Program-made: the position numbers and the translations under genes
Shown: positions 1,379 through 53,618 of the stretch, in pieces
How the letters are laid out: every line of letters starts with the position of its first letter
Position numbering within the stretch: position 1 is the stretch's first letter
Notes under the pieces: generated by a model
Told to the model about the DNA's origin: nothing
Databases searched by the model: none
The model's input: only the letters and a program-made list of their open reading frames with translations
Assembly: GCA_965224085.1 (NCBI GenBank)
Contig: CBDCYI010000005.1
Location: 224,001-288,000, forward strand
Length of the DNA: 64,000 nucleotides
Source of the DNA: Candidatus Marinacidobacterales bacterium
GTDB lineage: Bacteria > Acidobacteriota > Vicinamibacteria > Marinacidobacterales > SMYC01
Direction: 5' to 3'

Positions 1379-2290
1379 ATGCGTAACAAATATCTGTTGT
1401 TTCACGTCTTGGTCCTCTTGGCGGTTGGCGCCTCGGTCGCGCTCGCCCAGATGGGCACGGGGCGCATCAGAGGCTCGGCCGAGGACACCAACGGGCAGCC
1501 AATCGAAGGGGCGGTCATCACCGCGACGAGCGCGGACGGCAAAAAAACCCTGGAAACGACGAGCGGAAGCGACGGGAAATGGGCGATTCTTGGCTTCCGC
1601 TCCGGCATGTATGATCTCACCGTCGTCGCGGACGGCTTTATCCCGCAGGCCTACAAGCAACAGGTTAGCGGGTTCGGCCGCAACCCGACGATGGATTTCG
1701 TCCTCGAGCCGGTCGCGGAAGCGCCAAGCGGCGGTTCGATGCTCGTCGAAGCCAACGCGATGTTCGAGAACGGTCAGTATGAAGAAGCGTTGATAAAATA
1801 CGAAGCGTTCCTCTCCACCGAGCCGATGGCTTATCAGATCCATTACAACATCGGGGTCGTCTATGCCAGGCTGGAGGAATATGACAAGGCCGTCGAGTCC
1901 TACGAAAAAGTACTTGCCGCAGAGCCCATGCATAGCGGCTCGCTCATCGCGATCGGCGACGTCATGGTCCAACAGCAAAAGTACGACGAGGCCGTCGTCT
2001 ATTTCGAAAAAGCTATCGACCAGACGGAGGACGAGGTCGTCCCATTCAACGTCGCCGAGATCTATTTCAACCGCGGAGAGACCGACAGAGCGATTGAGCT
2101 CTACACCCTCGCGGCCGAGCGCAAACCCGACTGGCAGGACCCGCTCCTCAAGCTCGCCTACGCCAATTTGAACAAAGGTGATATGGACGCGGCAAAGACG
2201 GCACTCGAGGCCTGCGTCGCGGTCGCGCCAGACACGGTGGAGGGACAAACGGCGGCGCAGATGCTGCAGTCGCCGGCATTCGCTAACTAG
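1379..2290 (+). CDS. Secreted carboxypeptidase-regulatory-like domain + TPR repeat protein
   Basis: Signal peptide MRNKYLLFHVLVLLAVGASVALA; GRIRG..D.NGQPIEGA.I beta-sandwich motif; several TPR helices (YNIGVVYARLEEYDKAVESYEK). The TAG stop coincides with the IS terminus. Confidence 0.85.
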   Translation: MRNKYLLFHVLVLLAVGASVALAQMGTGRIRGSAEDTNGQPIEGAVITATSADGKKTLETTSGSDGKWAILGFRSGMYDLTVVADGFIPQAYKQQVSGFGRNPTMDFVLEPVAEAPSGGSMLVEANAMFENGQYEEALIKYEAFLSTEPMAYQIHYNIGVVYARLEEYDKAVESYEKVLAAEPMHSGSLIAIGDVMVQQQKYDEAVVYFEKAIDQTEDEVVPFNVAEIYFNRGETDRAIELYTLAAERKPDWQDPLLKLAYANLNKGDMDAAKTALEACVAVAPDTVEGQTAAQMLQSPAFAN

Positions 2291-2463
2291 TTCCTGTCCA
2301 GAAACACCATAACTTGTGGTGTACGAGAGGCCTATCGAAGATGTGGGTATTATACGTTTTCAGTCGGCACCTCGTAGGCTCGGAAGCGAATGAAAATCTT
2401 GGACGAAACGAGAGGCGAATCGTCAGCAATCCATGGCTATAAACGCAGTAAGAGTAATCATTA

Positions 2464-3828
2464 TTATCGTAATAGGTGCCTTGCCATTACCAACAGGTTG
2501 CAGGTGATGATGGAACTCCATACGTAGGATTTGAAAGAAGGCAATGAGCGCCATGTGCATCGGTCGAGACCAAAGACTCGTTTCAAGAACGAAATGACGC
2601 CTTCGATTCCGCAGCGAAATCGCCGTAGGCGTTGATAGACCCAGGAACTCTTGACCATATCGGTCACCGCGAAGTGAGCCTTGGTAAAGGCAACATCTTC
2701 AACTCCCTTGCCTTTGATGGCTTCCAAGTTTGCCTTTGAAGAAAACGCGCCATCGTAGGCAACCTGGCGCGGGGCCCGTTCGTAGAGTTCGACTTGACGG
2801 TCGATCATGGTTTCCGCGAGAGTTGAATCGGACGGATTCCCATCCAAGATCACGCAATCCAAAATCATCGAGGACGAGCCACCAGTCAAACACACCTTGT
2901 GACCGTAGAGAGTCTCGCGCCGGTCTTTGCGAATAATGTCGGTGTGTTCTTCGAAGATCGAAACGACCTTTTCCTCCGCAGGCACACGCTCTTCATCAAT
3001 CACTCTACGCCGAGTTTGGTTGATGACTTTTTCGGTGAGGACGAGAAAGTGCTTAAAATCCGCGGCGATCTTCTCCGCACTCGCTCGCTTCACCGGCTCG
3101 GTCAAGCCGGACTCGTCCAACTGGTCTGCAACGCGTTGAGCGGAGCGATAGGTTTCTTCCGACACCTTCAGTAGATCTCGATAGACGCGACGCCTTTGTT
3201 CCTTATCCTTCGCGTTTAGAACTCCCAGTCGACGTCTCTTCGCTCGACGCGTTCGATTGCCGAAGACCACTACTGTACCCAGCAGTTCGCGAGTTCGGCA
3301 CATGAGGCGAGTGAGAACTCGGACGCAGTCATAAAGAAGCTCGGAGTCCGTAGGAGAATGAATATTCGACTCCACTACCGTGCAGTCCACTCGTACTTTT
3401 CTTCCTTTTTCGATCGCGGTCTTCTCGGCAACACTCACCAACTCTCGGTTGATTTTCTCCAGCGTTTCGAACTTCACGGCTTTGATGTTTGCTGCTAGGG
3501 TCGACTTCGACGGGCTCGGCTCTATGATGCCGAGCTGGCAAAACGTCCGATAGCTTCGAGAGTCTGCCAAGTGAAACGCCAGCTCCCGATAGGTGAACTG
3601 ATTCAGCTGCTTGACCAACAACGCCCGGAGAACCTGCTCCGCGCTCATTCCCCCACGACCAACATCGCTCCCTGCCGATGGGGTGACCGACCTCAGGTCT
3701 TGCAGTACCAGCTCATTGAGCTTAGGATGGGCATCGAGCAGCGATGATATCGTTTCGAGCTCGCGTGCGTGCTCCAGCTCCAGCCAGGGCTCGCGAAGGC
3801 TTGGTTGTGGGTTGATCGTTTTTCGCAT
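2464..3828 (-). CDS. DDE transposase (DUF772-like N-terminus + DDE core; IS5/ISNCY type)
   Basis: Motifs VRVDCTVVESNIHSPTDS, YGHKV, YDGAF, R.GIEG.IS.LKR.FGL.RC; RBS AAGGAG upstream. Confidence 0.92.
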   Translation of the reverse strand: MRKTINPQPSLREPWLELEHARELETISSLLDAHPKLNELVLQDLRSVTPSAGSDVGRGGMSAEQVLRALLVKQLNQFTYRELAFHLADSRSYRTFCQLGIIEPSPSKSTLAANIKAVKFETLEKINRELVSVAEKTAIEKGRKVRVDCTVVESNIHSPTDSELLYDCVRVLTRLMCRTRELLGTVVVFGNRTRRAKRRRLGVLNAKDKEQRRRVYRDLLKVSEETYRSAQRVADQLDESGLTEPVKRASAEKIAADFKHFLVLTEKVINQTRRRVIDEERVPAEEKVVSIFEEHTDIIRKDRRETLYGHKVCLTGGSSSMILDCVILDGNPSDSTLAETMIDRQVELYERAPRQVAYDGAFSSKANLEAIKGKGVEDVAFTKAHFAVTDMVKSSWVYQRLRRFRCGIEGVISFLKRVFGLDRCTWRSLPSFKSYVWSSIITCNLLVMARHLLR

Positions 3829-3923
3829 TTAGGGCTGGTCTCCTTTGGAGTTAAGTCGTTTAGAATCTGCGTTTTTGTCGACTCGATACTAAACGACACT
3901 CCCTCAGAAGGCTAGCCCTAAAT
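3827..3923 (-). promoter_or_regulatory. Long hairpin covering the transposase RBS and start codon (also at 5517-5613)
   Basis: Nested complementary pairs ATTTAGGGCT/AGCCCTAAAT, GGAGT/ACTCC and GTCGTTTAG/CTAAACGAC enclose AAGGAG and the ATG. Confidence 0.6.
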
Positions 3924-3977
3924 TTGCGATTACCCCTTTTTTCTCAACCTCTTACACCTGTCAGGACGGGTACTAAC

Positions 3978-5665
3978 TAGTTCCTGTCCAGAAACACCAT
4001 AACTTGTGGTGTACGAGAGGCCTATCGAAGGTGTGGGTATTATACGTTTTCAGTCGGCACCTCGTAGGCTCGGAAGCGAATGAAAATCTTGGACGAAACG
4101 AGAGGCGAATCGTCAGCAATCCATGGCTATAAACGCAGTAAGAGTAATCATTATTATCGTAATAGGTGCCTTGCCATTACCAACAGGTTGCAGGTGATGA
4201 TGGAACTCCATACGTAGGATTTGAAAGAAGGCAATGAGCGCCATGTGCATCGGTCGAGACCAAAGACTCGTTTCAAGAACGAAATGACGCCTTCGATTCC
4301 GCAGCGAAATCGCCGTAGGCGTTGATAGACCCAGGAACTCTTGACCATATCGGTCACCGCGAAGTGAGCCTTGGTAAAGGCAACATCTTCAACTCCCTTG
4401 CCTTTGATGGCTTCCAAGTTTGCCTTTGAAGAAAACGCGCCATCGTAGGCAACCTGGCGCGGGGCCCGTTCGTAGAGTTCGACTTGACGGTCGATCATGG
4501 TTTCCGCGAGAGTTGAATCGGACGGATTCCCATCCAAGATCACGCAATCCAAAATCATCGAGGACGAGCCACCAGTCAAACACACCTTGTGACCGTAGAG
4601 AGTCTCGCGCCGGTCTTTGCGAATAATGTCGGTGTGTTCTTCGAAGATCGAAACGACCTTTTCCTCCGCAGGCACACGCTCTTCATCAATCACTCTACGC
4701 CGAGTTTGGTTGATGACTTTTTCGGTGAGGACGAGAAAGTGCTTAAAATCCGCGGCGATCTTCTCCGCACTCGCTCGCTTCACCGGCTCGGTCAAGCCGG
4801 ACTCGTCCAACTGGTCTGCAACGCGTTGAGCGGAGCGATAGGTTTCTTCCGACACCTTCAGTAGATCTCGATAGACGCGACGCCTTTGTTCCTTATCCTT
4901 CGCGTTTAGAACTCCCAGTCGACGTCTCTTCGCTCGACGCGTTCGATTGCCGAAGACCACTACTGTACCCAGCAGTTCGCGAGTTCGGCACATGAGGCGA
5001 GTGAGAACTCGGACGCAGTCATAAAGAAGCTCGGAGTCCGTAGGAGAATGAATATTCGACTCCACTACCGTGCAGTCCACTCGTACTTTTCTTCCTTTTT
5101 CGATCGCGGTCTTCTCGGCAACACTCACCAACTCTCGGTTGATTTTCTCCAGCGTTTCGAACTTCACGGCTTTGATGTTTGCTGCTAGGGTCGACTTCGA
5201 CGGGCTCGGCTCTATGATGCCGAGCTGGCAAAACGTCCGATAGCTTCGAGAGTCTGCCAAGTGAAACGCCAGCTCCCGATAGGTGAACTGATTCAGCTGC
5301 TTGACCAACAACGCACGGAGAACCTGCTCCGCGCTCATTCCCCCACGACCAACATCGCTCCCTGCCGATGGGGTGACCGACCTCAGGTCTTGCAGTACCA
5401 ACTCATTGAGCTTAGGATGGGCATCGAGCACCGACGAGATCGCTTCGAGCTCGCGCGCGTGCTCCACCTCCAGCCAGGGCTCGCATAGGCTTGGTTGTGG
5501 GTTGATCGTTTTTCGCATTTAGGGCTGGTCTCCTTTGGAGTTAAGTCGTTTAGAATCTGCGTTTTTGTCGACTCGATACTAAACGACACTCCCTCAGAAG
5601 GCTAGCCCTAAATTTGCGATTACCCCTTTTTTCTCAACCTCTTACACCTGTCAGGACGGGTACTA
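3978..5665 (-). mobile_element. IS5/ISNCY-type insertion sequence, copy 2
   Basis: Direct repeat of 2288-3975 with the same IRs and a few SNPs; 2-bp AC between adjacent IRs. Confidence 0.9.
4154..5518 (-). CDS. DDE transposase, copy 2
   Basis: 454 aa; identical to copy 1 except four substitutions in the first 30 residues. Confidence 0.92.
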   Translation of the reverse strand: MRKTINPQPSLCEPWLEVEHARELEAISSVLDAHPKLNELVLQDLRSVTPSAGSDVGRGGMSAEQVLRALLVKQLNQFTYRELAFHLADSRSYRTFCQLGIIEPSPSKSTLAANIKAVKFETLEKINRELVSVAEKTAIEKGRKVRVDCTVVESNIHSPTDSELLYDCVRVLTRLMCRTRELLGTVVVFGNRTRRAKRRRLGVLNAKDKEQRRRVYRDLLKVSEETYRSAQRVADQLDESGLTEPVKRASAEKIAADFKHFLVLTEKVINQTRRRVIDEERVPAEEKVVSIFEEHTDIIRKDRRETLYGHKVCLTGGSSSMILDCVILDGNPSDSTLAETMIDRQVELYERAPRQVAYDGAFSSKANLEAIKGKGVEDVAFTKAHFAVTDMVKSSWVYQRLRRFRCGIEGVISFLKRVFGLDRCTWRSLPSFKSYVWSSIITCNLLVMARHLLR

Positions 5666-5667
5666 AC

Positions 5668-6572
5668 TAGTTCCTGTCCAGAAACACCATAACTTGTGGT
5701 GTACGAGAGGCCTATCGAAGATGTGGGTATTATACGTTTTCAGTCGGCACCTCGTAGGCTCGGAAGCGAATGAAAATCTTGGACGAAACGAGAGGCGAAT
5801 CGTCAGCAATCCATGGCTATAAACGCAGTAAGAGTAATCATTATTATCGTAATAGGTGCCTTGCCATTACCAACAGGTTGCAGGTGATGATGGAACTCCA
5901 TACGTAGGATTTGAAAGAAGGCAATGAGCGCCATGTGCATCGGTCGAGACCAAAGACTCGTTTCAAGAACGAAATGACGCCTTCGATTCCGCAGCGAAAT
6001 CGCCGTAGGCGTTGATAGACCCAGGAACTCTTGACCATATCGGTCACCGCGAAGTGAGCCTTGGTAAAGGCAACATCTTCAACTCCCTTGCCTTTGATGG
6101 CTTCCAAGTTTGCCTTTGAAGAAAACGCGCCATCGTAGGCAACCTGGCGCGGGGCCCGTTCGTAGAGTTCGACTTGACGGTCGATCATGGTTTCCGCGAG
6201 AGTTGAATCGGACGGATTCCCATCCAAGATCACGCAATCCAAAATCATCGAGGACGAGCCACCAGTCAAACACACCTTGTGACCGTAGAGAGTCTCGCGC
6301 CGGTCTTTGCGAATAATGTCGGTGTGTTCTTCGAAGATCGAAACGACCTTTTCCTCCGCAGGCACACGCTCTTCATCAATCACTCTACGCCGAGTTTGGT
6401 TGATGACTTTTTCGGTGAGGACGAGAAAGTGCTTAAAATCCGCGGCGATCTTCTCCGCACTCGCTCGCTTCACCGGCTCGGTCAAGCCGGACTCGTCCAA
6501 CTGGTCTGCAACGCGTTGAGCGGAGCGATAGGTTTCTTCCGACACCTTCAGTAGATCTCGATAGACGCGACG
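5668..6572 (-). mobile_element. IS5/ISNCY-type element, truncated copy 3 (transposase C-terminal half only)
   Basis: Identical to copies 1/2 from the IR at 5668 to ...ATAGACGCGACG at 6572, then switches abruptly to GWxTD gene sequence; no second IR. Confidence 0.9.
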
Positions 6573-7709
6573 GCCACCGTGTATTGGGACGACGCGATTT
6601 CTCAGAATCACTGTAACGTTGAAATCTCCCGGAACGAGCGGAAAATCGTCTTGATAGGCAAATGGGCGTCCGCCAAGCTCTCGCATCTGGGTTGGCGTGA
6701 GCTCGATATAGGCCTCTTTATCGGTCGCGAGTACGAGCTTCCCGTCCGCGCTAGTTGCTTCGATGGAAAAGTCCAGTGTCGTGTAGAACTTCGTCCGTTG
6801 TTCGTCCGTCTCGAGCGTAAAGTTTTGGGGTTCGATCTCGATACTAAAATGCACGAGCGCGATCCCCGAAGGATCCGCGAGCACTGAGAAGACACTCCGC
6901 GACGGCACGTAGTTGAACGAGTATTCCGCCGAGACACGATTGCCATACCTCATCCACGCATCGGCGTAGTCGGTCCGGATCGCTCGTCGGGGAGACTCTT
7001 CGATCCGCGCCATCATCACCTGGCTTCCCAAGGAGGCGCGACCTCTCTGTGCATCGCCAGGCTCGCTAGGGTCGAACGACAGCGAGGCCTGCGCAAGCTC
7101 TCCCGCAACCTCCCGAATCCTCTGATACGCGGCACGCTCGTTTCCGGCCCCGGGCAGGTTCTCCGACGAGTTCAGAAGAGCTTGCGGCCCGTCTGCCATG
7201 GGGCTGTAGAGTCTGTACTCCCCGAAATCGTTCCGTTTGAAAAACAGCAGATAGAAGAAAGCCGGCGTGCCCGAGCCGGCCTGTCCTTGATAGAACCAGA
7301 GGTGCGACGAGACGAGCTCCGAATAGCCGTCGAAACGCATGATGCTTTGAGGCTCACCGAGAATGATGTAATAGCGTCCCCGGTCGGTGCGCCATCCGTC
7401 TCGAAACGTTTCCCTACCGAGATGGCTGTTGGCATATTCGAGTCGGCGATAATGCTCGATCTTGAACTCGTTCGCGGGGGTGGCGAGATTGGAATCTCTT
7501 TTTCTCCAGAAGGCCTCGATGAAGCGGCTGCGCTCTTCGAGCGCGCCGAGCGACAAGAACACCTCTCGTTCACGTTCGGTGATGATGTAGACGACGTCGC
7601 GCTCGATCCAGAGCTTGTGCTCGGGGGGCAGTTTGTCGATGCGCTCGTCGGCCGAAACAAGCGGTGCCAGGACCGCGAGCGTCAGGAGCTTTAGAACATA
7701 TCTCATCAC
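5844..7709 (-). pseudogene. GWxTD domain protein truncated and fused in frame to the transposase C-terminus
   Basis: Signal peptide, KLWIERDVVYIITERE, FWRKRD, DGWRTDRGRYYIILGEP (GWxTD motif); from RRVYRDLLK onward the sequence is the IS transposase. Confidence 0.85.
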
Positions 7710-25768: not shown

Positions 25769-27433
25769 ATGGATCCCGTAACTCGCAGCGTTATTGGCTA
25801 CGCCATGAACGCTATCGCCAAAGAGATGGGCGTGAACCTCTACCAGGCGGCCCACTCCACCATCGTTCGGGAAATCCGTGACATCGGTACGGCCATCTTC
25901 GACGCCGAAGGCCAGACCGTGGCGATGGCTCACTGGATTCCCATGCTTTCCAATGCCCTGGAGCCGGGCATGCAGGCCGCCATGCGGCACTATGACATCA
26001 GAGCCCTGCAACCCGGCGAAGCACTGTTGACGAACGACCCTTTCGATGGTGGGCAGCACGTGAACGACATTCTCCTATTCACGCCCATCCACTTCGCCGG
26101 CCGAGTCATCGCCTATGCCTGTGCCAGCGCTCATCACCTTGATGTAGGCGGTGCGGCACCCGCCTCCTACGCCGGAGCCACCGACGTATATCAAGAAGGT
26201 ATTGTGTTCCCCCCGATAAAAGTCGATCTGGGAGGGAACTGGACGGAAAGCGTCTTCGGCAAGATCTTCCAGGCAAATATACGCGCACCGGACAAGTCCA
26301 TTCCTGACTTTGACGCTCAGATTGCCGCTTGCCGCACCGGCGATAGGCGCATCCTCGCCCTGATCGAGAAATACGGCGTTGACACTATTCAGGATTTCAT
26401 GAAGGAGATCGAGGTGTATTCCGAGCGGGTAACCCGCGCGTCTATTGCCGAGATCAGAGACGGTGACTATCACGGTGAAGCGTACATGGAAGACGACGGG
26501 ACCGGCTCCGGTGGACCTTTCACCATTCGGCTTGCGGTGCGCGTAAGAGGGGACGAGCTGGTGGTGGATTTCAGTGGCACCGACCCTGAGGCCTCCGGTT
26601 TCATCAACATCCCCCTGGCATCCACCTACTCGACGGTTCGCACGACGATCATATCCATCCTTGGCATCGAGCTTCGCCACGTCAGCGCCGGAGCCTTCCG
26701 GCCCATCAGGCTCGAGACACCTCTGGGAACCCTGGTGAATCCCAGACGTCCGGCTGCCACCCGTGCCCGCACCAGCACATGCTACAGGATTTTCGATGCG
26801 ATCAACCTTGCCCTGGCGCCGGTCTTGCCCCACCAGGTGGCGGCGCCGGGTTTCGATAGCCAGACAGGCGTCTCGTTCGCCTACCGGAGCGAAGAGGGCA
26901 TCGCCATTCTCAGTGAGGCGATAGGCGCCGGTAATGGAGGCATGTACAATCAGGACGGTGCTGACGGTATGATCATGCACCTGACCAACGCCACCAACAC
27001 CCCAGTAGAAGCGGTCGAGATCGAATTTCCCTTTCTAGAAGTGCTTCACTACCGCCTGGTCAAAGACAGTGGCGGTCCTGGCAAGTTCCGGGGGGGGATG
27101 GGCATCGAGCGAGCCTTTCGCACGAGGGCGGGAGGTGTGACCTTCGGCCTTCATTCTGATCGCCATCACCACAGTGCCCCCGGGCTTTTTGGCGGCCACT
27201 CTGGCGCCTCCGGTCAGTGCGCCGTGGTTCGCGAAGGCAAGGAAGAGGTATTGGGATCCAAGGTGCACACCACGCTCAACAAAGGCGATATCCTGACCGT
27301 TCGCACGGGCGGAGGGGCAGGCTATGGCCTACCGGAAGAGCGGGACCCCCAGCGGATCCTCCAGGACCTGCGTGAAGATAGAATCTCTCAGGAAGCCGCT
27401 CTCCTGTATGAGCACTTACCTCGCGAGAGCTAA
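25769..27433 (+). CDS. Hydantoinase B / oxoprolinase C-terminal subunit
   Basis: NDPFDGGQHVND, HHLDVGG, VDFSGT, NTPVEAVE, DSGGPGKFRGG, TGGGAGYG. Confidence 0.95.
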   Translation: MDPVTRSVIGYAMNAIAKEMGVNLYQAAHSTIVREIRDIGTAIFDAEGQTVAMAHWIPMLSNALEPGMQAAMRHYDIRALQPGEALLTNDPFDGGQHVNDILLFTPIHFAGRVIAYACASAHHLDVGGAAPASYAGATDVYQEGIVFPPIKVDLGGNWTESVFGKIFQANIRAPDKSIPDFDAQIAACRTGDRRILALIEKYGVDTIQDFMKEIEVYSERVTRASIAEIRDGDYHGEAYMEDDGTGSGGPFTIRLAVRVRGDELVVDFSGTDPEASGFINIPLASTYSTVRTTIISILGIELRHVSAGAFRPIRLETPLGTLVNPRRPAATRARTSTCYRIFDAINLALAPVLPHQVAAPGFDSQTGVSFAYRSEEGIAILSEAIGAGNGGMYNQDGADGMIMHLTNATNTPVEAVEIEFPFLEVLHYRLVKDSGGPGKFRGGMGIERAFRTRAGGVTFGLHSDRHHHSAPGLFGGHSGASGQCAVVREGKEEVLGSKVHTTLNKGDILTVRTGGGAGYGLPEERDPQRILQDLREDRISQEAALLYEHLPRES

Positions 27434-27462
27434 CCACTACGGCCAGACCGTGAGCTCGGTTA

Positions 27463-27501
27463 ACCATGAAATATTAACATGCGATATTAATATTTCATGG
27501 T
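27463..27501. repeat. Perfect 15-bp AT-rich inverted repeat with 9-nt spacer
   Basis: ACCATGAAATATTAA-catgcgata-TTAATATTTCATGGT, 12 bp outside the left end of the integrase/IS91 element. Confidence 0.85.
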
Positions 27502-27608
27502 AAATAAAACCTCTTGAACTAAGCCGCTCGCGCGGCGGCGGGACCTGCAAGCTCTCCCGAACTGGTGAGCCAAACTGGGGGCATTTTGCCTGCGCCTTTT
27601 TCGCCGCA

Positions 27609-27879
27609 GCCCATCGCCCTTCCAGGGAATCACGGCGCGCAGGTCGTGTCAAGGGTTTCGCGCGCTTCGCGCGCCGCTGGAAATGTTGGATTGGCTGGGG
27701 CAGTGCGGGTTGCACGATTGCTGCGCCGCCCTGGAGGTTGCGCGAGACGCGGTGTTCGGCACGGCCACGAGCGAATTGCTGGAAATGTTGGATTGGCTGG
27801 GGCGCGGTTGCACGATTGTAGCTGCGCCGCCCTGGACACGACCTACGCGCCGTGATGCGAGTCACTATGGGCGATGGGC
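27609..27879. repeat. Long stem-loop in the element leader, with a 144-bp loop insertion containing two ~60-bp direct repeats
   Basis: Outer stem GCCCATCGCCC/GGGCGATGGGC; inner stem ATCACGGCGCGCAGGTCGTGTCAAGGG/CCCTGGACACGACCTACGCGCCGTGAT; repeats at 27676-27735 and 27778-27836. Confidence 0.85.
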
Positions 27880-28157
27880 GGACGGGTGCCTCCGGCAGGG
27901 GCTCCGGACTCCGGGTTTTGCACGGCAAGCCAGCCGCGGTGAACTCACTCGCCTCTAACCCGTTTCCCTTGTTTTTCCGGGCCACGGGAGCCAGAAGGGA
28001 TTAAGGAGGACGGCTTCGCCGTCGTCTTCATTCGTTCGATCTTCGCTCCGGACAACGAGTCCTGCGTTTCTCGGAACCGCTCTCTCACACATGGCATCAT
28101 CCCTGTCCCCCGCGGGCGGCGATGGTCGTCGTCTGCTAAATCACTGGAGGAATAATC

Positions 28158-29018
28158 ATGGGATGCCTTAGCGAAAAAATGCTTGCCGACATGAAACTGA
28201 AGGGGTTCGCACGCTCCACGCAGGAGGAGTATCTGCTGCGAGCGCGCCATTTCGCGGCACATTACATGCGCTCACCCGCCGAGATGGGCGAGCCGGAGAC
28301 CCGCGATTATCTGATTCATCTCGTTAACGAGAAGAAGGCCTCTCCGGCCAGCCACCACATGTACGTCGCCTCTCTCAAGTTTCTCTACGCAACCACACTC
28401 AACCGCCCGGAGGAGGTGGCGAAGATTCCTTGGCCCAAGAAACCTCGAACGTTACCCGATATCTTGAGCGGCGAGGAGGTCGATTGTTTGCTTCACTCCG
28501 TTCACTCCGTCAAACACCGCGCGATTCTCATGAGCGCCTACGGCGCCGGGCTGCGCGTTTCCGAGGTGTGCTGTCTGAAGCACTCCGACATCGACTCCAA
28601 ACGCATGCTCTTGCACATTCGTCACGCCAAGAACTCCAAGGCCCGCTATGTCACGCTCAGCGAACGTTTGTTGAGCTTCCTGCGCTACTACTGGAAAACC
28701 ACTCGCCCTCGCGGAGAGTACTTGTTTCCCGGCCGTAATCCTGGTGCCCACATCTCAGACGATGGCGTTCGCTGGGCTCTTCGTAAGGCCGTGGCTGAGG
28801 CGGGGCTCACCAAACGTATCACTCCTCATTCGCTGCGCCACGGTTTTGCCACACATATGCTCGAACTGGGTGAAGACATTCGTACCGTGCAGCAACTGCT
28901 CGGTCATGCCTCCATCCAGACCACGGCCCGTTACACAAAGGTAACAGCAAAGCACTTGGGGCGCATCAAGAGCCCTCTCGATTTGCTGGGAACGAAGAAG
29001 GGCAAAAAGCTCGGCTAG
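28158..29018 (+). CDS. Tyrosine recombinase (phage integrase family)
   Basis: YGAGLRVSE (R), AKNSKAR (K), HSLRH (HxxR), LLGHAS (H), TTARY (Y); RBS GGAGG. Confidence 0.96.
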   Translation: MGCLSEKMLADMKLKGFARSTQEEYLLRARHFAAHYMRSPAEMGEPETRDYLIHLVNEKKASPASHHMYVASLKFLYATTLNRPEEVAKIPWPKKPRTLPDILSGEEVDCLLHSVHSVKHRAILMSAYGAGLRVSEVCCLKHSDIDSKRMLLHIRHAKNSKARYVTLSERLLSFLRYYWKTTRPRGEYLFPGRNPGAHISDDGVRWALRKAVAEAGLTKRITPHSLRHGFATHMLELGEDIRTVQQLLGHASIQTTARYTKVTAKHLGRIKSPLDLLGTKKGKKLG

Positions 29019-29024
29019 CTCATC

Positions 29025-30272
29025 ATGCAGCCCCATGGGCTGTGTCCTTCCCGCGTCGAGTCACCACCACGGCCACTGCTCGAGATCGCGGAAATCTTCC
29101 GCGAACATGGTCCACGCTTTCGCCAAACCCATGCGCTGACAGCCGAGCAGCGCAAGGTGATGTGGGCTATAGAGAACTGTCGCACGGCGGTGCTAGGTGG
29201 CCATCTCGACGTGTGTAACGCTTGCGGATACGCGGCGCCTTCGTTTAACTCGTGCCGCAATCGGCACTGTCCCAAGTGTCAGAGCCTAGCCCAGGCGAAG
29301 TGGATGGAGCAGCGAGCTCAGAGGATTCTTCCGACTCACTATTTCCACGTCGTTTTCACCCTCCCGCAGCAACTCAAGCCTCTCGCCCGAGACAATCCCA
29401 AGTTCATGTTCAACCTCCTGTTTCGCGCCGCCTCGCGAACTCTATTGGAGTTCGGCCAAAGCCGGCTCGAAGCTCAACTTGCCTTCACCGCCGTACTGCA
29501 CACCTGGACCCGGAAGCTCCTGTTCCATCCACACCTGCATTGCATCGTCTCCGGGGGCGGGCTCAACCACCCTCAGCAGCTGTGGAACGCCGCAAACCCT
29601 CGCTTTCTGTTTCCCGTCAAGGCCATGTCGCGGCTTTTTCGCAGCAAGTTTCTCGATGCCCTTAGGCTCGCTTACGACCAAGATGAGCTTGAGTTGAGCG
29701 CAAACGCTTCCCACCTCAGAAACCCACCTCGCTTCCGGGAGCTGAAAGACAAGCTCTACCGCATCGATTGGGTCGTTTACAGCAAACGACCCTTCGGTGG
29801 CCCAGAGCAGGTTTTCAACTACCTCGGCCGATATACCCACCGGGTCGGCATCTCCAACCGCCGACTCATTCGCATCGACCACTACGGCGTCTGCTTCGCC
29901 ACCAAGAATGGTAATACCGTTACCGTCCCCCCAGAGGAATTTATCCGCCGTTTCCTCCTGCACGTACTGCCGAAAGGTTTCGTCAAGATTCGCCATTTCG
30001 GCTTAATGGCCTCCTCCAATGCGACCACCAAGCTCGTAGTCGCGCGCCAGTTGCTCGATGAGAAAACAAAACCCACGACCGACGCCGACGACGTGCAAGT
30101 CAGCTCGCGTGCCACCGAGGACAAGGACTGGCGCGAGCGGCTCAAGGAGCTCACCGGCATCGACCTCACCATCTGTCCCCGCTGCAAGAAAGGTCGCATG
30201 CTCCGATGCCCTCTCTCCACGAAGCTTCGACGGATCAACCTCCAGATCCGCTCCCCTCCAGATGAGTCATGA
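29025..30272 (+). CDS. IS91-family rolling-circle transposase (Zn-binding + Y2 HUH)
   Basis: CRTAVLGGH, SCRNRHCPKC, YFHVVFTLP, LHTW, HPHLHC (HUH), YLGRYTHR (Y2), RRFLLHVLP.GF.KIRHFG. Confidence 0.96.
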   Translation: MQPHGLCPSRVESPPRPLLEIAEIFREHGPRFRQTHALTAEQRKVMWAIENCRTAVLGGHLDVCNACGYAAPSFNSCRNRHCPKCQSLAQAKWMEQRAQRILPTHYFHVVFTLPQQLKPLARDNPKFMFNLLFRAASRTLLEFGQSRLEAQLAFTAVLHTWTRKLLFHPHLHCIVSGGGLNHPQQLWNAANPRFLFPVKAMSRLFRSKFLDALRLAYDQDELELSANASHLRNPPRFRELKDKLYRIDWVVYSKRPFGGPEQVFNYLGRYTHRVGISNRRLIRIDHYGVCFATKNGNTVTVPPEEFIRRFLLHVLPKGFVKIRHFGLMASSNATTKLVVARQLLDEKTKPTTDADDVQVSSRATEDKDWRERLKELTGIDLTICPRCKKGRMLRCPLSTKLRRINLQIRSPPDES

Positions 30273-30646
30273 TCACGATGCTTTCGCTCCGCCTCTCACA
30301 ACGCCGACCGGTCGTTGAAACGGACTCGTGTGTCTCGTCGCGAACTCATAACGCTACCGTGGTGGTTACCGCACCGGGTAGGCCCTTCTTCTATCTTCCC
30401 CGCCATATCTCTGTCGATTCGCAACTCCCTGACGTCCAACTCCGACTTCCTGTCCGACCGTCTTCTCACTCCAATTTATGCATAGTTGCCGCTAGCTGGG
30501 CGGCTTAGTTCAATTACGGTTTGCACGAATGCTCGCTCTACAAGCATCGTGCCTCGCGTAACGCCGTGCTTCGCTCGATTCCTGCAAACCGCTATTAATT
30601 TCTCGGAAAGTGCCAGACCATTCCTTGATTAAATCATGTCTACTCC

Positions 30647-30913
30647 GTGGAAGTCTACAACGAGAACAAGACCTACAAGGGGAAGCATATATCCGACTGG
30701 GGCGGGGATCTCGAGGTTCCCGTGCTGCTCATGTGGAGCCAGCCTGGCTCGAGGGTGGAGTGGGGCCTGAAACACTTCTTCAAGGCCCCCGGGGCCGAGA
30801 TGCGCATCCTCCCGTGGTCTGGGCACCACCTCTTCACGGATCAGAGCGATAGATGGGTGCAGGTCGTGACCAACTGGCTGCAGAACGACTCCGCCCGTCC
30901 CCCGAACCCGTGA
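30647..30913 (+). pseudogene. C-terminal fragment of an alpha/beta hydrolase
   Basis: LEVPVLLMW...ILPWSGHHLFTDQSDRWVQVVTNWL resembles the catalytic-His end of alpha/beta hydrolases; N-terminus missing next to the element end. Confidence 0.55.
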
Positions 30914-42793: not shown

Positions 42794-42799
42794 ATTGAA

Positions 42800-43339
42800 G
42801 TGAACAACCACCGCCTAGAAGGCGGTGGCTTCAAGGGCTGTCAATTGGAAATTGACTGTCGTCGTGAAGAGGCTCGCCATCCTGGGAGTCTATGTACTCC
42901 TTTACCATCTCGTCCGTTATGCTTCCTGAACTCACCGCCAGATATCCTCGGGCCCAGAAGTGCCGGCCCCAAAACTTCTTCCTCAGGTGAGCAAACTCCT
43001 GAAGGAGTACTCGGGAGCTTATTCCTTTTAGCCACTGCACGATCGTACTCAGGTCCTGGTGTGGTCGGTAGGATACGAACACGTGGACGTGGTCGCGTGC
43101 AACCTTACCCGAGATTATGTGCAGCTCATGTTCCATCGCGATCTGACGAATCAGATCGCGCACACGAACCGCTACTGGACCGATCAAAACCTTTTTACGA
43201 TATTTCGGTATCCAAACGATGTGCGCTTTTAGGTCCGTTTTCGTGTGCGCTCCGTGCCTGTAGTGACGCACGCGACCACAATACCACGATCTTCTCTTCG
43301 CCTAAAGGCGAGGGGTTTCGACCATCCCCGGAAGAGACA
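42800..43339 (-). mobile_element. IS200-type (tnpA-only) insertion sequence
   Basis: Subterminal hairpins CCACCGCCTAGAAGGCGGTGG and CTTCGCCTAAAGGCGAGG; right end ...GTTCAC; inserted 3' of TTAG with no target duplication. Confidence 0.9.
42831..43271 (-). CDS. tnpA: IS200/IS605-family Y1 HUH transposase
   Basis: HIVWIPKYRKKVL, DHVH (HUH), LKGISSR, FWARGY, EYIDSQ (catalytic Tyr). Confidence 0.96.
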   Translation of the reverse strand: MRHYRHGAHTKTDLKAHIVWIPKYRKKVLIGPVAVRVRDLIRQIAMEHELHIISGKVARDHVHVFVSYRPHQDLSTIVQWLKGISSRVLLQEFAHLRKKFWGRHFWARGYLAVSSGSITDEMVKEYIDSQDGEPLHDDSQFPIDSP

Positions 43340-43834
43340 CTAAGCCGCTCGCGCGGCGGCGGGACCTGCAAGCTCTCCCGAACTGGTGAGCCAAACTGGG
43401 GGCATTTTGCCTGCGCCTTTTTCGCCGCAGCCCATCGCCCTTCCAGGGAATCACGGCGCGCAGGTCGTGTCAAGGGTTTCGCGCGCTTCGCGCGCCGGCT
43501 GCGCCGCCCTGGACACGACCTACGCGCCGTGATGCGAGTCACTATGGGCGATGGGCGGACGGGTGCCTCCGGCAGGGGCTCCGGACTCCGGGTTTTGCAC
43601 GGCAAGCCAGCCGCGGTGAACTCACTCGCCTCTAACCCGTTTCCCTTGTTTTTCCGGGCCACGGGAGCCAGAAGGGATTAAGGAGGACGGCTTCGCCGTC
43701 GTCTTCATTCGTTCGATCTTCGCTCCGGACAACGAGTCCTGCGTTTCTCGGAACCGCTCTCTCACACATGGCATCATCCCTGTCCCCCGCGGGCGGCGAT
43801 GGTCGTCGTCTGCTAAATCACTGGAGGAATAATC

Positions 43835-44695
43835 ATGGGATGCCTTAGCGAAAAAATGCTTGCCGACATGAAACTGAAGGGGTTCGCACGCTCCACGCAG
43901 GAGGAGTATCTGCTGCGAGCGCGCCATTTCGCGGCACATTACATGCGCTCACCCGCCGAGATGGGCGAGCCGGAGACCCGCGATTATCTGATTCATCTCG
44001 TTAACGAGAAGAAGGCCTCTCCGGCCAGCCACCACATGTACGTCGCCTCTCTCAAGTTTCTCTACGCAACCACACTCAACCGCCCGGAGGAGGTGGCGAA
44101 GATTCCTTGGCCCAAGAAACCTCGCACGTTACCCGATATCTTGAGCGGCGAGGAGGTCGATTGTTTGCTTCACTCCGTTAACTCCGTCAAACACCGCGCG
44201 ATTCTCATGAGCGCCTACGGCGCCGGGCTGCGCGTTTCCGAGGTGTGCTGTCTGAAGCACTCCGACATCGACTCCAAACGCATGCTCTTGCACATTCGTC
44301 ACGCCAAGAACTCCAAGGCCCGCTATGTCACGCTCAGCGAACGTTTGTTGAGCTTCCTGCGCTACTACTGGAAAACCACTCGCCCTCGCGGAGAGTACTT
44401 GTTTCCCGGCCGTAATCCTGGTGCCCACATCTCAGACGATGGCGTTCGCTGGGCTCTTCGTAAGGCCGTGGCTGAGGCGGGGCTCACCAAACGTATCACT
44501 CCTCATTCGCTGCGCCACGGTTTTGCCACACATATGCTCGAACTGGGTGAAGACATTCGTACCGTGCAGCAACTGCTCGGTCATGCCTCCATCCAGACCA
44601 CGGCCCGTTACACAAAGGTAACAGCAAAGCACTTGGGGCGCATCAAGAGCCCTCTCGATTTGCTGGGAACGAAGAAGGGCAAAAAGCTCGGCTAG
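43835..44695 (+). CDS. Tyrosine recombinase, copy 2
   Basis: Same as 28158-29018 except one H/N substitution. Confidence 0.96.
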   Translation: MGCLSEKMLADMKLKGFARSTQEEYLLRARHFAAHYMRSPAEMGEPETRDYLIHLVNEKKASPASHHMYVASLKFLYATTLNRPEEVAKIPWPKKPRTLPDILSGEEVDCLLHSVNSVKHRAILMSAYGAGLRVSEVCCLKHSDIDSKRMLLHIRHAKNSKARYVTLSERLLSFLRYYWKTTRPRGEYLFPGRNPGAHISDDGVRWALRKAVAEAGLTKRITPHSLRHGFATHMLELGEDIRTVQQLLGHASIQTTARYTKVTAKHLGRIKSPLDLLGTKKGKKLG

Positions 44696-44701
44696 CTCAT
44701 C

Positions 44702-45949
44702 ATGCAGCCCCATGGGCTGTGTCCTTCCCGCGTCGAGTCACCACCACGGCCACTGCTCGAGATCGCGGAAATCTTCCGCGAACATGGTCCACGCTTTCGC
44801 CAAACCCATGCGCTGACAGCCGAGCAGCGCAAGGTGATGTGGGCTATAGAGAACTGTCGCACGGCGGTGCTAGGTGGCCATCTCGACGTGTGTAACGCTT
44901 GCGGATACGCGGCGCCTTCGTTTAACTCGTGCCGCAATCGGCACTGTCCCAAGTGTCAGAGCCTAGCCCAGGCGAAGTGGATGGAGCAGCGAGCTCAGAG
45001 GATTCTTCCGACTCACTATTTCCACGTCGTTTTCACCCTCCCGCAGCAACTCAAGCCTCTCGCCCGAGACAATCCCAAGTTCATGTTCAACCTCCTGTTT
45101 CGCGCCGCCTCGCGAACTCTATTGGAGTTCGGCCAAAGCCGGCTCGAAGCTCAACTTGCCTTCACCGCCGTACTGCACACCTGGACCCGGAAGCTCCTGT
45201 TCCATCCACACCTGCATTGCATCGTCTCCGGGGGCGGGCTCAACCACCCTCAGCAGCTGTGGAACGCCGCAAACCCTCGCTTTCTGTTTCCCGTCAAGGC
45301 CATGTCGCGGCTTTTTCGCAGCAAGTTTCTCGATGCCCTTAGGCTCGCTTACGACCAAGATGAGCTTGAGTTGAGCGCAAACGCTTCCCACCTCAGAAAC
45401 CCACCTCGCTTCCGGGAGCTGAAAGACAAGCTCTACCGCATCGATTGGGTCGTTTACAGCAAACGACCCTTCGGTGGCCCAGAGCAGGTTTTCAACTACC
45501 TCGGCCGATATACCCACCGGGTCGGCATCTCCAACCGCCGACTCATTCGCATCGACCACTACGGCGTCTGCTTCGCCACCAAGAATGGTAATACCGTTAC
45601 CGTCCCCCCAGAGGAATTTATCCGCCGTTTCCTCCTGCACGTACTGCCGAAAGGTTTCGTCAAGATTCGCCATTTCGGCTTAATGGCCTCCTCCAATGCG
45701 ACCACCAAGCTCGTAGTCGCGCGCCAGTTGCTCGATGAGAAAACAAAACCCACGACCGACGCCGACGACGTGCAAGTCAGCTCGCGTGCCACCGAGGACA
45801 AGGACTGGCGCGAGCGGCTCAAGGAGCTCACCGGCATCGACCTCACCATCTGTCCCCGCTGCAAGAAAGGTCGCATGCTCCGATGCCCTCTCTCCACGAA
45901 GCTTCGACGGATCAACCTCCAGATCCGCTCCCCTCCAGATGAGTCATGA
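44702..45949 (+). CDS. IS91-family transposase, copy 2
   Basis: Protein appears identical to 29025-30272. Confidence 0.96.
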   Translation: MQPHGLCPSRVESPPRPLLEIAEIFREHGPRFRQTHALTAEQRKVMWAIENCRTAVLGGHLDVCNACGYAAPSFNSCRNRHCPKCQSLAQAKWMEQRAQRILPTHYFHVVFTLPQQLKPLARDNPKFMFNLLFRAASRTLLEFGQSRLEAQLAFTAVLHTWTRKLLFHPHLHCIVSGGGLNHPQQLWNAANPRFLFPVKAMSRLFRSKFLDALRLAYDQDELELSANASHLRNPPRFRELKDKLYRIDWVVYSKRPFGGPEQVFNYLGRYTHRVGISNRRLIRIDHYGVCFATKNGNTVTVPPEEFIRRFLLHVLPKGFVKIRHFGLMASSNATTKLVVARQLLDEKTKPTTDADDVQVSSRATEDKDWRERLKELTGIDLTICPRCKKGRMLRCPLSTKLRRINLQIRSPPDES

Positions 45950-46491
45950 TCACGATGCTTTCGCTCCGCCTCTCACAACGCCGACCGGTCGTTGAAACGG
46001 ACTCGTGTGTCTCGTCGCGAACTCATAACGCTACCGTGGTGGTTACCGCACCGGGTAGGCCCTTCTTCTATCTTCCCCGCCATATCTCTGTCGATTCGCA
46101 ACTCCCTGACGTCCAACTCCGACTTCCTGTCCGACCGTCTTCTCACTCCAATTTATGCATAGTTGCCGCTAGCTGGGCGGCTTAGTTCAATTACGGTTTG
46201 CACGAATGCTCGCTCTACAAGCATCGTGCCTCGCGTAACGCCGTGCTTCGCTCGATTCCTGCAAACCGCTATTAATAATGTTGGCGCCTAGGGTCGTGCC
46301 TGGTTCGAGCCTCATGTTAACCGGTGGGCCGTTGGATGCGAGTCATCATTCTAGCACCGGGACGCGGATCCCCTGTCGTATGGCCCCCTCGCTGCCGTAG
46401 ATGAGAGTCTCCCACGCTTCCAGCGTTCTCGATGCCACGGATTTGTGCTGCACCATCCTGTCTTTGCGTCTGAAAAATGTAACTACCGCTA

Positions 46492-53129: not shown

Positions 53130-53618
53130 ACCATCGCCGCCCGCGGGGGACAGGGATGATGCCATGTGTGAGAGAGCGGTTCCGAGAAACGCAGGACTCG
53201 TTGTCCGGAGCGAAGATCGAACGAATGAAGACGACGGCGAAGCCGTCCTCCTTAATCCCTTCTGGCTCCCGTGGCCCGGAAAAACAAGGGAAACCGGTTA
53301 GAGGCGAGTGAGTTCACCGCGGCTGGCTTGCCGTGCAAAACCCGGAGTCCGGAGCCCCTGCCGGAGGCACCCGTCCGCCCATCGCCCATAGTGACTCGCA
53401 TCACGGCGCGCAGGTCGTGTCCAGGGCGGCGCAGCCGGCGCGCGAAGGTCGTGCAGGGCGGCGCAAAGCGCGCGAAACCTTGACACGACCTGCGCGCCGT
53501 GATTCCCTGGAAGGGCGATGGGCTGCGGCGAAAAAGGCGCAGGCAAAATGCCCCCAGTTTGGCTCACCAGTTCGGGAGAGCTTGCAGGTCCCGCCGCCGC
53601 GCGAGCGGCTTAGTTCAA
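53130..53618 (-). mobile_element. Solo non-coding leader of the integrase/IS91 element (copy 3, inverted, no ORFs)
   Basis: Reverse complement of 27514-28126 apart from the loop; ends in GCGGCTTAGTTCAA at 53605-53618. Confidence 0.9.

Follow-up and report, generated by a model that had tools for sequence, protein, structure and literature searches.

The DNA stretch analysed here, hereafter the window (64,000 nucleotides, C5:224001-288000 of the genome G000 of a Candidatus Marinacidobacterales bacterium), carries at 27514-30599 an active insertion sequence that belongs to an integrase-bearing branch of the IS91 family. Coordinates below are window positions unless a contig is given. The element contains a gene for a tyrosine recombinase, int, followed directly by a gene for an HUH-Y2 transposase, tnp. 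A left inverted repeat (IRL) forms its left end, and a right inverted repeat (IRR) is followed by a tail containing a hairpin (Table 1). An earlier reading of this DNA (the original prediction) had proposed that the transposase peels off a single-stranded circle and that the recombinase integrates it through the folded tail. A modified form of this proposal, in which the recombination site is created by the joining of the two ends, may describe the element better.

The tnp product scored 407.8 bits against the NCBIfam model of the IS91 family (NF033538; cut-off 125). It has a zinc-binding N-terminus, an HUH motif (HPHLH) and a YxxxY motif (YLGRY), and both motifs align with those of IS91 TnpA, to which the protein is 26% identical. 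For int, the nearest NCBIfam models were those of archaeal XerA-type recombinases and of integron integrases, the score being under the cut-off in both cases (193 bits against a cut-off of 265 for the integron-integrase model TIGR02249). When int was aligned with the structures of XerA and IntI4, the R, HxxR, H and Y motifs were found to be conserved (AGLRVSE, HSLRHGFATH, LGHAS and ARYTKV). Between int residues 176 and 198, corresponding to residues 178 and 241 of Vibrio IntI4 (2a3v), there is a gap in the alignment, and about 60 IntI4 residues, the IntI-specific insertion among them, have no counterpart in int. Judged from their sequences, both enzymes look intact, and the transposase was intact in every copy read. 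The genes are 6 bp apart, as had been claimed (int ends at 29018 and tnp starts at 29025).

The canonical element is 2.94 kb long, and the genome holds at least seven near-full copies together with many fragments. They are scattered over four contigs (C4, C5, C9 and C11) at unrelated sites, not in an array associated with attI or intI. The two copies known from the original prediction do differ by very few nucleotides: there are two mismatches in 2779 nt between copies 1 and 2, in addition to a 144-nt piece present in copy 1 alone. Beyond these two, a third, truncated copy is also located within the window. Copy 1 was polymorphic between samples; contigs of two public runs (X1 and X2) had an empty site, and a contig of X5 entered the element from the left flank. 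Copies that are more than 99.6% identical and a copy-1 site that is empty in some samples indicate that the element was recently active.

Relatives of the transposase were found in 41 of the 400 other genomes of the same phylum that were sampled (42 of 401 counting G000). In 33 of 34 related loci, with tnp 38-57% identical, int lay directly upstream of tnp; this count includes locus L046 from an unpublished genome (G049) and is 32 of 33 without it. The two genes of the relatives either overlapped or had 3-8 bp between them. The gene pair is widespread, occurring in several phyla and on plasmids, among them plasmids of Paraburkholderia, Mesorhizobium and Clostridium.

Two of the related genomes showed peculiarities of their own. 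In G139 (loci L080, L081 and L047) a frameshift divides int into two reading frames, and the copies concerned share 99.8% identity. Either the shift is programmed or these elements are mobilised in trans. The element family of G311 is 4.6 kb long, with extra open reading frames (ORFs) between the left end and int. This genome also contains about 20 pairs of left-end and right-end fragments, each about 100 nt apart. The idea that these pairs are deletion derivatives was dropped, and they are now taken as probable scaffold gaps; if they are full copies collapsed there, the 4.1-Mb genome would hold some 25 copies. A 534-bp 'mini-element' in locus L078, considered as a miniature derivative, is one of these fragment pairs and is not claimed as such.

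Table 1. Coordinates of the element, its parts and its further copies in the window.
Feature	Position	Strand	Basis and remarks
Copy 1, with 144-nt extra piece	27514-30599	+	Copy comparison
Left end / IRL, TTGAACTAAGCCGC	27514-27527	+	Copies, empty site; first two T common with target; relatives' heptamer GTTGAAC
Small left-end hairpin, 5-bp stem, 4-nt loop	27523-27536	+	Sequence, relatives; starts 9 nt from the end
Non-coding leader	27528-28157	+	Left end to int: 644 nt in copy 1, 500 nt in canonical copies
Leader palindrome	arms 27629-27655 / 27830-27856 (copy 2: 43450-43476 / 43507-43533)		Sequence
144-nt piece unique to copy 1	27677-27820	+	Copy comparison; part matches an ~88-nt repeat
int, 286-aa tyrosine recombinase	28158-29018	+	Phage_int_SAM_4 + Phage_integrase (PF00589, 1.2e-41)
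tnp, 415-aa IS91-family HUH-Y2 transposase	29025-30272	+	Zn_Tnp_IS91 + Y2_Tnp (PF14319 + PF04986)
CATAG, core of motif CCCATAG / CGCATAAC	30481-30485	+	Comparison; kept upstream of IRR in relatives
IRR, GCGGCTTAGTTCAA	30500-30513	+	Sequence, relatives; 86 nt inside right end; relatives GTTCAAC/GTCCAAC
Tail, arms 30517-30525 / 30583-30591, then CTATTAA + shared TT	30514-30599	+	Element-unique sequence stops at 30598
IS200-like element (Y1_Tnp, ORF 42831-43271) in copy-2 left end	42799-43338	-	3' of TTAGT, bottom strand
Copy 2, canonical 2.94-kb form	43335-46276	+	Copy comparison; left end split TTGA / ACTAAG by the IS200-like element
Copy 3, left ~490 nt only, broken just ahead of int	53130-53618	-	Copy comparison

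Ends, target sites and the fold of the joined ends

The original prediction had described 14-bp inverted repeats and an 86-nt tail, and both descriptions were accurate: the repeat is perfect (27514-27527 against 30500-30513), the 9-nt arms of the tail are at 30517-30525 and 30583-30591, and the tail ends in ATTAAT. The accompanying statement that classical IS91 lacks such repeats agrees with the published description of IS91 as having no terminal inverted repeats (PMC5714925). However, the IS91 copy that we examined carries terminal repeats, short and imperfect, as well as hairpins at its ends. Its left end consists of 10 nt and a hairpin and its right end of a palindrome and 7 nt, with GAAC at the origin flank.

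Thirteen left and thirteen right ends of the copies in this genome were read with their flanks. The left junction was N-TTGAAC, with TCGAAC in one of the 13 copies; at the right junction, ...CTATTAA was followed by TT in 10 of 13 copies and by TA, AA or TC in three. The boundary of copy 1 can be seen in the contigs of X1 and X2, which join 27513 to 30599 and give the empty site CCTC[TT]TCTCGG, the occupied site being CCTC[TT]GAAC...ATTAA[TT]TCTCGG. The G of TTGAAC is therefore owned by the element, and the boundary is ambiguous within the shared TT alone, for which a 2-bp duplication, a crossover core and a terminus of the element all come into question. An uninterrupted paralogous copy of the gene was consistent with this boundary. 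We also looked for an empty site in relatives, using one copy (L002) and its flanks in 20 of them, and none was obtained; the matches of one flank, in same-genus genomes, extended only to about 225 bp from the element, and the other flank had none.

Comparison of copies in our own and six other multi-copy genomes was used to fix the ends of the elements. Common to all of them were (G)TTGAAC with a small hairpin (110-215 nt before int in the relatives), a CCCATAG-type motif, the IRR, a tail hairpin starting 1-6 nt past the IRR, then 5-9 nt and then (G)TT. The left-end hairpin was kept in the relatives with differing stem sequences. The TT or GTT of the left end was near-constant (12 of 13 in our genome, or 11 of 12 when two paralogous flanks are counted once; 19 of 20 in G311; 9 of 9 in G393), whereas the nucleotides past the right end deviated in 3 of 13, 4 of 19 and 2 of 8 cases, respectively. 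The right-hand GTT of G311 was present in 15 of 19 cases, the variants being GCT (twice), GGT and GGC; in G393 the letters after GTT were AG in 6 of 8. A right-end flank that varies beside a near-constant left end fits bases past the crossover that are derived from the target.

The target sites themselves had a recognisable pattern. Among 12 independent left flanks of our genome we found A at -10 (11/12), T at -9 (9/12), A at -8 (11/12), A at -7 (11/12) and C at -6 (8/12), and among 13 right flanks T at +1 (12/13), T at +2 (10/13) and A at +3 (8/13). The resulting consensus is ATAAC-N5-^TTA, in which ATAA-N6-TTA(T) is partly two-fold symmetric over 15 nt. The symmetry and the Xer-type spacing of the putative core sites are those of the kind of site bound by tyrosine recombinases, and the target resembles dif (ATAA-N6-TTAT). 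Read on the bottom strand, the bases at the right-end flank were (A/C/G)TAA or xGAA in most copies. Two copies (C11:397227 and C4:1354388) were located at the identical position in two paralogous genes that are 86% identical, a sign that sites are strongly selected.

The left end of copy 2 is interrupted by an IS200-like element, of which the genome has about 35-40 copies. The same insertion splits the IRL between TTGA and ACTAAG in three copies whose outer flanks differ, the further ones being at C5:1596410-1596963 and C5:1631249-1631793. This repeated split indicates either a hot spot, fitting a left end that is often single-stranded, or a composite that is still transposing. A 541-bp left flank common to the three copies was considered as a read-through capture and rejected, as it is the IS200-like insertion with TTGA kept outside. 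At the end of the IS200-like element, a hairpin lies about 13 nt from TTGA.

The tail hairpin of copy 1 was insignificant when folded alone (z -1.56; in a separate test -1.3 for the top and -2.2 for the bottom strand), so its significance comes from comparison with relatives. The inverted repeats of the relatives were found by a mismatch scan with the window's own repeat, taken by coordinate; two loci had no clear repeat, three were flagged as out of register and loci with short flanks were skipped. A tail hairpin was present in 23 of 24 elements examined, with a median outer helix of 14 bp; L059 and L061 were included among the 24 despite the doubtful position of their repeats. The sequences of the tail stem differ in every lineage, and the stem covaries across homologous elements, as would be expected from the original prediction. 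In addition, an unselected test was performed with fixed 100-nt windows after the repeat and dinucleotide shuffles (n=20). On average, z reached -2.69 on the top strand and -3.61 on the bottom strand, compared with -0.26 in control windows, and z was below -2 in 13 top-strand, 16 bottom-strand and 0 control windows out of 20 each.

The folds were also strand-biased. The bottom strand folded better in 16 of 20 tails, and G.T pairs were found 44 times in the bottom-strand and 12 times in the top-strand tail folds. Similarly, when IRL was compared with the reverse-complemented IRR in 22 elements, transition mismatches gave G.T pairs on the bottom strand in 28 cases and on the top strand in two. 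On these counts, the bottom strand appears to spend time single-stranded.

Imitating a circle, we joined the right and left ends by script; with the right end as defined by copy comparison, the modelled junctions carry one or a few extra T relative to the predicted junction. IRR, tail and IRL formed one long imperfect hairpin in all seven families, and the bottom strand was the more stable one in six of the seven. The modelled hairpin of about 115 nt has the layout of an integron attC site, and the imperfect bottom-strand hairpin typical of attC is present here as a prediction.

The consensus of the integron core and inverse core sites is RYYYAAC/GTTRRRY. The left end of the relatives is G^TTGAAC and their inner repeat is GTTCAAC or GTCCAAC, and our own element has AGTTCAAT and (N)TTGAAC, so that heptamers of the R''/R' kind are found in both. 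The attC crossover separates the G of R' from the TT that follows it (bottom strand: A^C), and the integron integrase is reported to bind the bottom strand only (PMC2727003). The boundaries of the elements were compatible with a G^TT crossover in our genome, G311, G393 and G250, and the agreement was exact in a relative borne by an integron. This relative belongs to the IS91 family but has no integrase gene (tnp 33% identical). On IMP-6 plasmids it is flanked by aadA2 and qacEdelta1 in a class 1 integron and is placed exactly at the crossover of the aadA2 attC (GGCG^TTGAAC...CTAAGCG^TTAGAT), with GCGTT common to both junctions. The empty junction is present in another plasmid. The integron-borne relative has the same fold, and its bottom strand again folds better.

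Proposed mechanism and rival explanations

We propose a two-enzyme, copy-out/paste-in mechanism with the transposase producing a bottom-strand circle by copy-out and the recombinase inserting the folded junction of that circle, a proposal that we hold with about as much belief as doubt. As in IS91, the HUH-Y2 transposase would nick the bottom strand at the right end. Host replication would displace that strand, which would be cut again at the left end and closed into a single-stranded circle. By comparison of the sequences, IRR, the 86-nt tail and IRL would adjoin in the joined form only, and there they would make up the attC-like hairpin, with IRR and IRL pairing as R'' and R', an unequal internal loop, the tail stem as L'' and L', and a variable tip. 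Int would recombine this fold with a double-stranded target through a single strand, crossing over just 5' of TT (G^TT in the relatives, N^TT at ATAAC-N5-^TTA here), and replication would complete the insertion. The integrated element would be without the fold because its IRL is 2.9 kb away, and this breaking of the fold upon integration would explain the need for a rolling-circle enzyme. The polarity of such a process, as read from the ends, would be that of IS91. The empty site, the target motif, the placement of the boundary, the strand bias and a conserved anatomy are observations; we infer the existence of the circles, which enzyme cuts where, and an exchange restricted to a single strand.

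The earlier idea that the recombinase integrates a folded tail gained from the covariation of the tail, the bottom-strand bias of the folds, the boundary, the heptamer and the integron-borne relative. In our reading the folded tail would not suffice by itself: the site would consist of IRR, tail and IRL and be formed only once the ends are joined.

Several points weigh against the two-enzyme mechanism. According to the alignment, int is without the insertion by which integron integrases read attC folds, and its score reaches the cut-off of neither the XerA-type nor the integron-integrase model. A pure exchange of single strands does not account for the exceptional left ends (TC in 1 of 13 copies here, GCT in 1 of 20 in G311). 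The left-arm target motif is strong and clear in our own genome alone, being weak in G393 and G311, and if the composite with the IS200-like element has been moving as one piece, transposition can do without an intact IRL. The bias towards the bottom strand is also predicted by an IS91-like mechanism with the transposase only, and a C-to-T bias on the exposed strand could yield the G.T pattern without any selection for pairing. HUH enzymes, too, recognise single-stranded hairpins close to the ends of elements, and IS91 has the same layout, so the tail could be just a rolling-circle origin. The related elements are kin and the counts therefore overstate their independence; the integron-borne relative represents a single insertion event (11 records, one plasmid lineage). 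No joint of right to left end was seen in the contigs of X1, X2, X5 and X10 (27300-30800), but contigs drop rare forms and the lack of a circle joint therefore says nothing either way. In the genome coordinates, no right end of an element abuts a left end.

The main rival, and a serious one even though we think it rather unlikely, is an IS91-like rolling circle that uses the same hairpins with the transposase only. The tail hairpin and the following 7 nt would be the origin and the left end (9 nt and hairpin) the terminator; the HUH enzyme would insert beside (A/C)TAA on the bottom strand, the pairing of IRR with IRL would bring the strand ends together, and Int would be an accessory protein, for example resolving multimers or read-through products, or regulating. 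IS91 offers a ready precedent, as it has comparable end hairpins and a flanking tetranucleotide. Its single-stranded circle is described as made and inserted by TnpA (PMC5714925), and its insertion as taking place beside a tetranucleotide (PMC10288648). The strand polarity of our element matches that of IS91, and the bottom-strand flanks of its right end given above would be read in the same way. What speaks for the recombinase is that int has been kept beside tnp in 33 of 34 loci from distant lineages and that the heptamer at the left end matches the integron core site, with the boundary at the crossover of that site. Furthermore, the integrase-less relative was found precisely at an attC crossover, where IntI1 is available, and a partly two-fold symmetric target of 15 nt suits a recombinase dimer better than it suits a tetranucleotide rule.

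If, on the other hand, the recombinase were the sole mover, the element would be a conventional double-stranded one: Int, which has all the catalytic motifs, would excise and integrate a double-stranded circle, and the HUH protein would only replicate this circle, in the manner of a small rolling-circle plasmid, or be a relic. The two shared nucleotides (TT) and the clean empty site suit such conservative recombination, and some copies have the TT of the element at one junction and a variant at the other, as would arise from a mismatched overlap. We nevertheless consider it improbable, since the inverted repeats would be 86 bp apart in a double-stranded circle and would form no core site, the target sites are many and different, the strand-asymmetric mismatches and G.T pairs indicate a single-stranded form, and the transposase has stayed intact in all copies read. 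It could also be argued that the tail hairpin is merely a terminator of tnp transcription or a stem stabilising its mRNA, with the inverted repeats being ordinary ends bound by protein; the hairpin is indeed downstream of tnp, and hairpins after genes are common. This seems very improbable to us. It is the antisense (bottom) strand that folds better and has more G.T pairs, no T-run follows the hairpin, and its place between IRR and the end of the element is fixed in all lineages.

Relation to known systems

The element resembles IS91, IS801 and IS1294 in the family of its transposase, the hairpins near both ends and the inferred polarity. No clear target duplication is seen, though the shared TT could represent one of 2 bp. 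It differs from them by the tyrosine recombinase gene and the 14-bp inverted repeat, of which IRR is 86 nt inside. Compared with IS91, the target is ^TT with ATAAC upstream, not GAAC/CAAG, and tnp shows the low identity to TnpA mentioned above (26%); the IS91 rule of GAAC/CAAG (GTTC/CTTG) at the origin end is not followed, with right flanks starting TT(A) in 10-12 of 13 copies. ISfinder lists integrase-bearing members of the IS91 family.

With integron attC sites, the joined ends share the R''/R'-like heptamers, an imperfect hairpin of attC size, the bottom-strand preference and the G^TT crossover (PMC2727003), and one relative is placed as a cassette-like unit in a class 1 integron. Unlike integron cassettes, this 2.9-kb unit brings its own recombinase and transposase and uses many chromosomal sites, not attI. 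In contrast to integrons, its Int has no IntI-specific insertion and the G position is A or N in our genome. CTX-phi is one of the elements that integrate by Xer recombination of folded single-stranded DNA (PMC4439123). In CTX-phi, a rolling-circle HUH protein supplies the single strands. There, too, a tyrosine recombinase integrates the fold of two inverted sites, which are about 90 nt apart. CTX-phi is a phage that uses the host XerCD at a single dif site, whereas here the recombinase is encoded by the element, phage genes are absent and targets are numerous, at least 13 different flanks having been found in one genome.

The 'peel and paste' elements of the IS200/IS605 type and Helitrons (PMC5027513, PMC4778049) likewise have an HUH enzyme and subterminal hairpins, and their single-strand intermediates and lack of a target duplication would be further points in common. 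They differ in that excision and insertion are both the work of the HUH enzyme, with no recombinase gene linked to it. Strand-biased circles have been reported for the tyrosine-recombinase elements called SEs (PMC9345347, PMC10214605), which are much larger, have several recombinases and are without an HUH transposase. Bipartite module (BIM) elements were considered as another pair of a recombinase and an IS91-like enzyme and were rejected; their second gene codes for an SMC-domain protein of unknown function (PMC3414803).

The pair of an integrase and an IS91-type transposase is a catalogued one, and CTX-phi already joins rolling-circle replication to integration of a fold by Xer. Our literature searches, supplements not covered, turned up no paper settling what the integrase does in IS91-like elements; nor was a description of joined ends as an attC-like site with its boundary at the attC crossover found in print. 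HUH rolling-circle transposons and tyrosine-recombinase elements have been treated as separate worlds, with CTX-phi combining the two by means of a host recombinase. Here one minimal insertion sequence holds both enzymes, and its ends look built to recreate an attC-like fold in a circular single strand only. If the proposed mechanism is true, it explains why the integrase has been retained in this branch of the IS91 family, and the element would offer a simple, workable system for studying how single-stranded DNA recombines with double-stranded DNA outside integrons. It would also tie IS91-type elements to integron arrays, where one relative is already at an attC crossover beside resistance cassettes, and the origin of attC sites and cassettes would become a directly testable question.

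We give little credence to a bolder extension, namely that integrase-bearing IS91 elements are self-mobilising 'super-cassettes' whose junction is a true attC, remade with each copy-out, and thus a route to the origin of cassettes. IS91-type enzymes are known to run past the terminator end. If this extension were correct, such elements, or integrase-less ones that borrow an integron integrase, may package neighbouring genes together with an attC-like end.

Leader, local repeats and other features of the window

The original prediction had counted a structured leader of about 0.5 kb as a part of the system. The leader does fold better than shuffled sequences (z -3.95), chiefly via one long palindrome. 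It is not conserved, and only 110-215 nt separate the left end from int in the relatives, compared with 500-644 nt here. A search of the window region 27300-30800 against Rfam gave no match at E values up to 1, and no sigma-70 consensus was found in a promoter scan of the leader. From these comparisons, we take the leader to be a local, lineage-specific acquisition that lies outside the conserved system.

The leader palindrome resembles short repeats (60-160 nt, 71-87% identical) that are dispersed in many genomes of the same genus and the same family. A repeat of about 88 nt (95% identical) is located at 27739-27822, in copy 1 only, and at nine other loci of the genome, including C9:14735-14822, C9:19722-19817 and C4:28216-28303 plus six others; two of the copies on C9 are 5 kb apart and in opposite orientation.

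To the left of copy 1, a near-perfect AT-rich palindrome of 39 nt (27463-27501) lies between the end of a hydantoinase B-like gene and the insertion site. To the right is an ORF of 88 amino acids (30647-30913), and the flanks of copy 1 are contiguous in the empty-site contigs of other samples. The possibility that this ORF is the C-terminal piece of a hydrolase was dropped, as it gave no Pfam match.

Additionally, a tandem array was noticed at 2283-7709, consisting of three head-to-tail units of 1690 bp that are 100% identical over the 300-nt stretch compared. It is either a tandem array of insertion sequences or an assembly artefact. Units 1 and 2 carry an ORF of 454 amino acids each and unit 3 one of 621 amino acids, and the 454-residue product has DDE transposase domains (DUF772 and DDE_Tnp_1).

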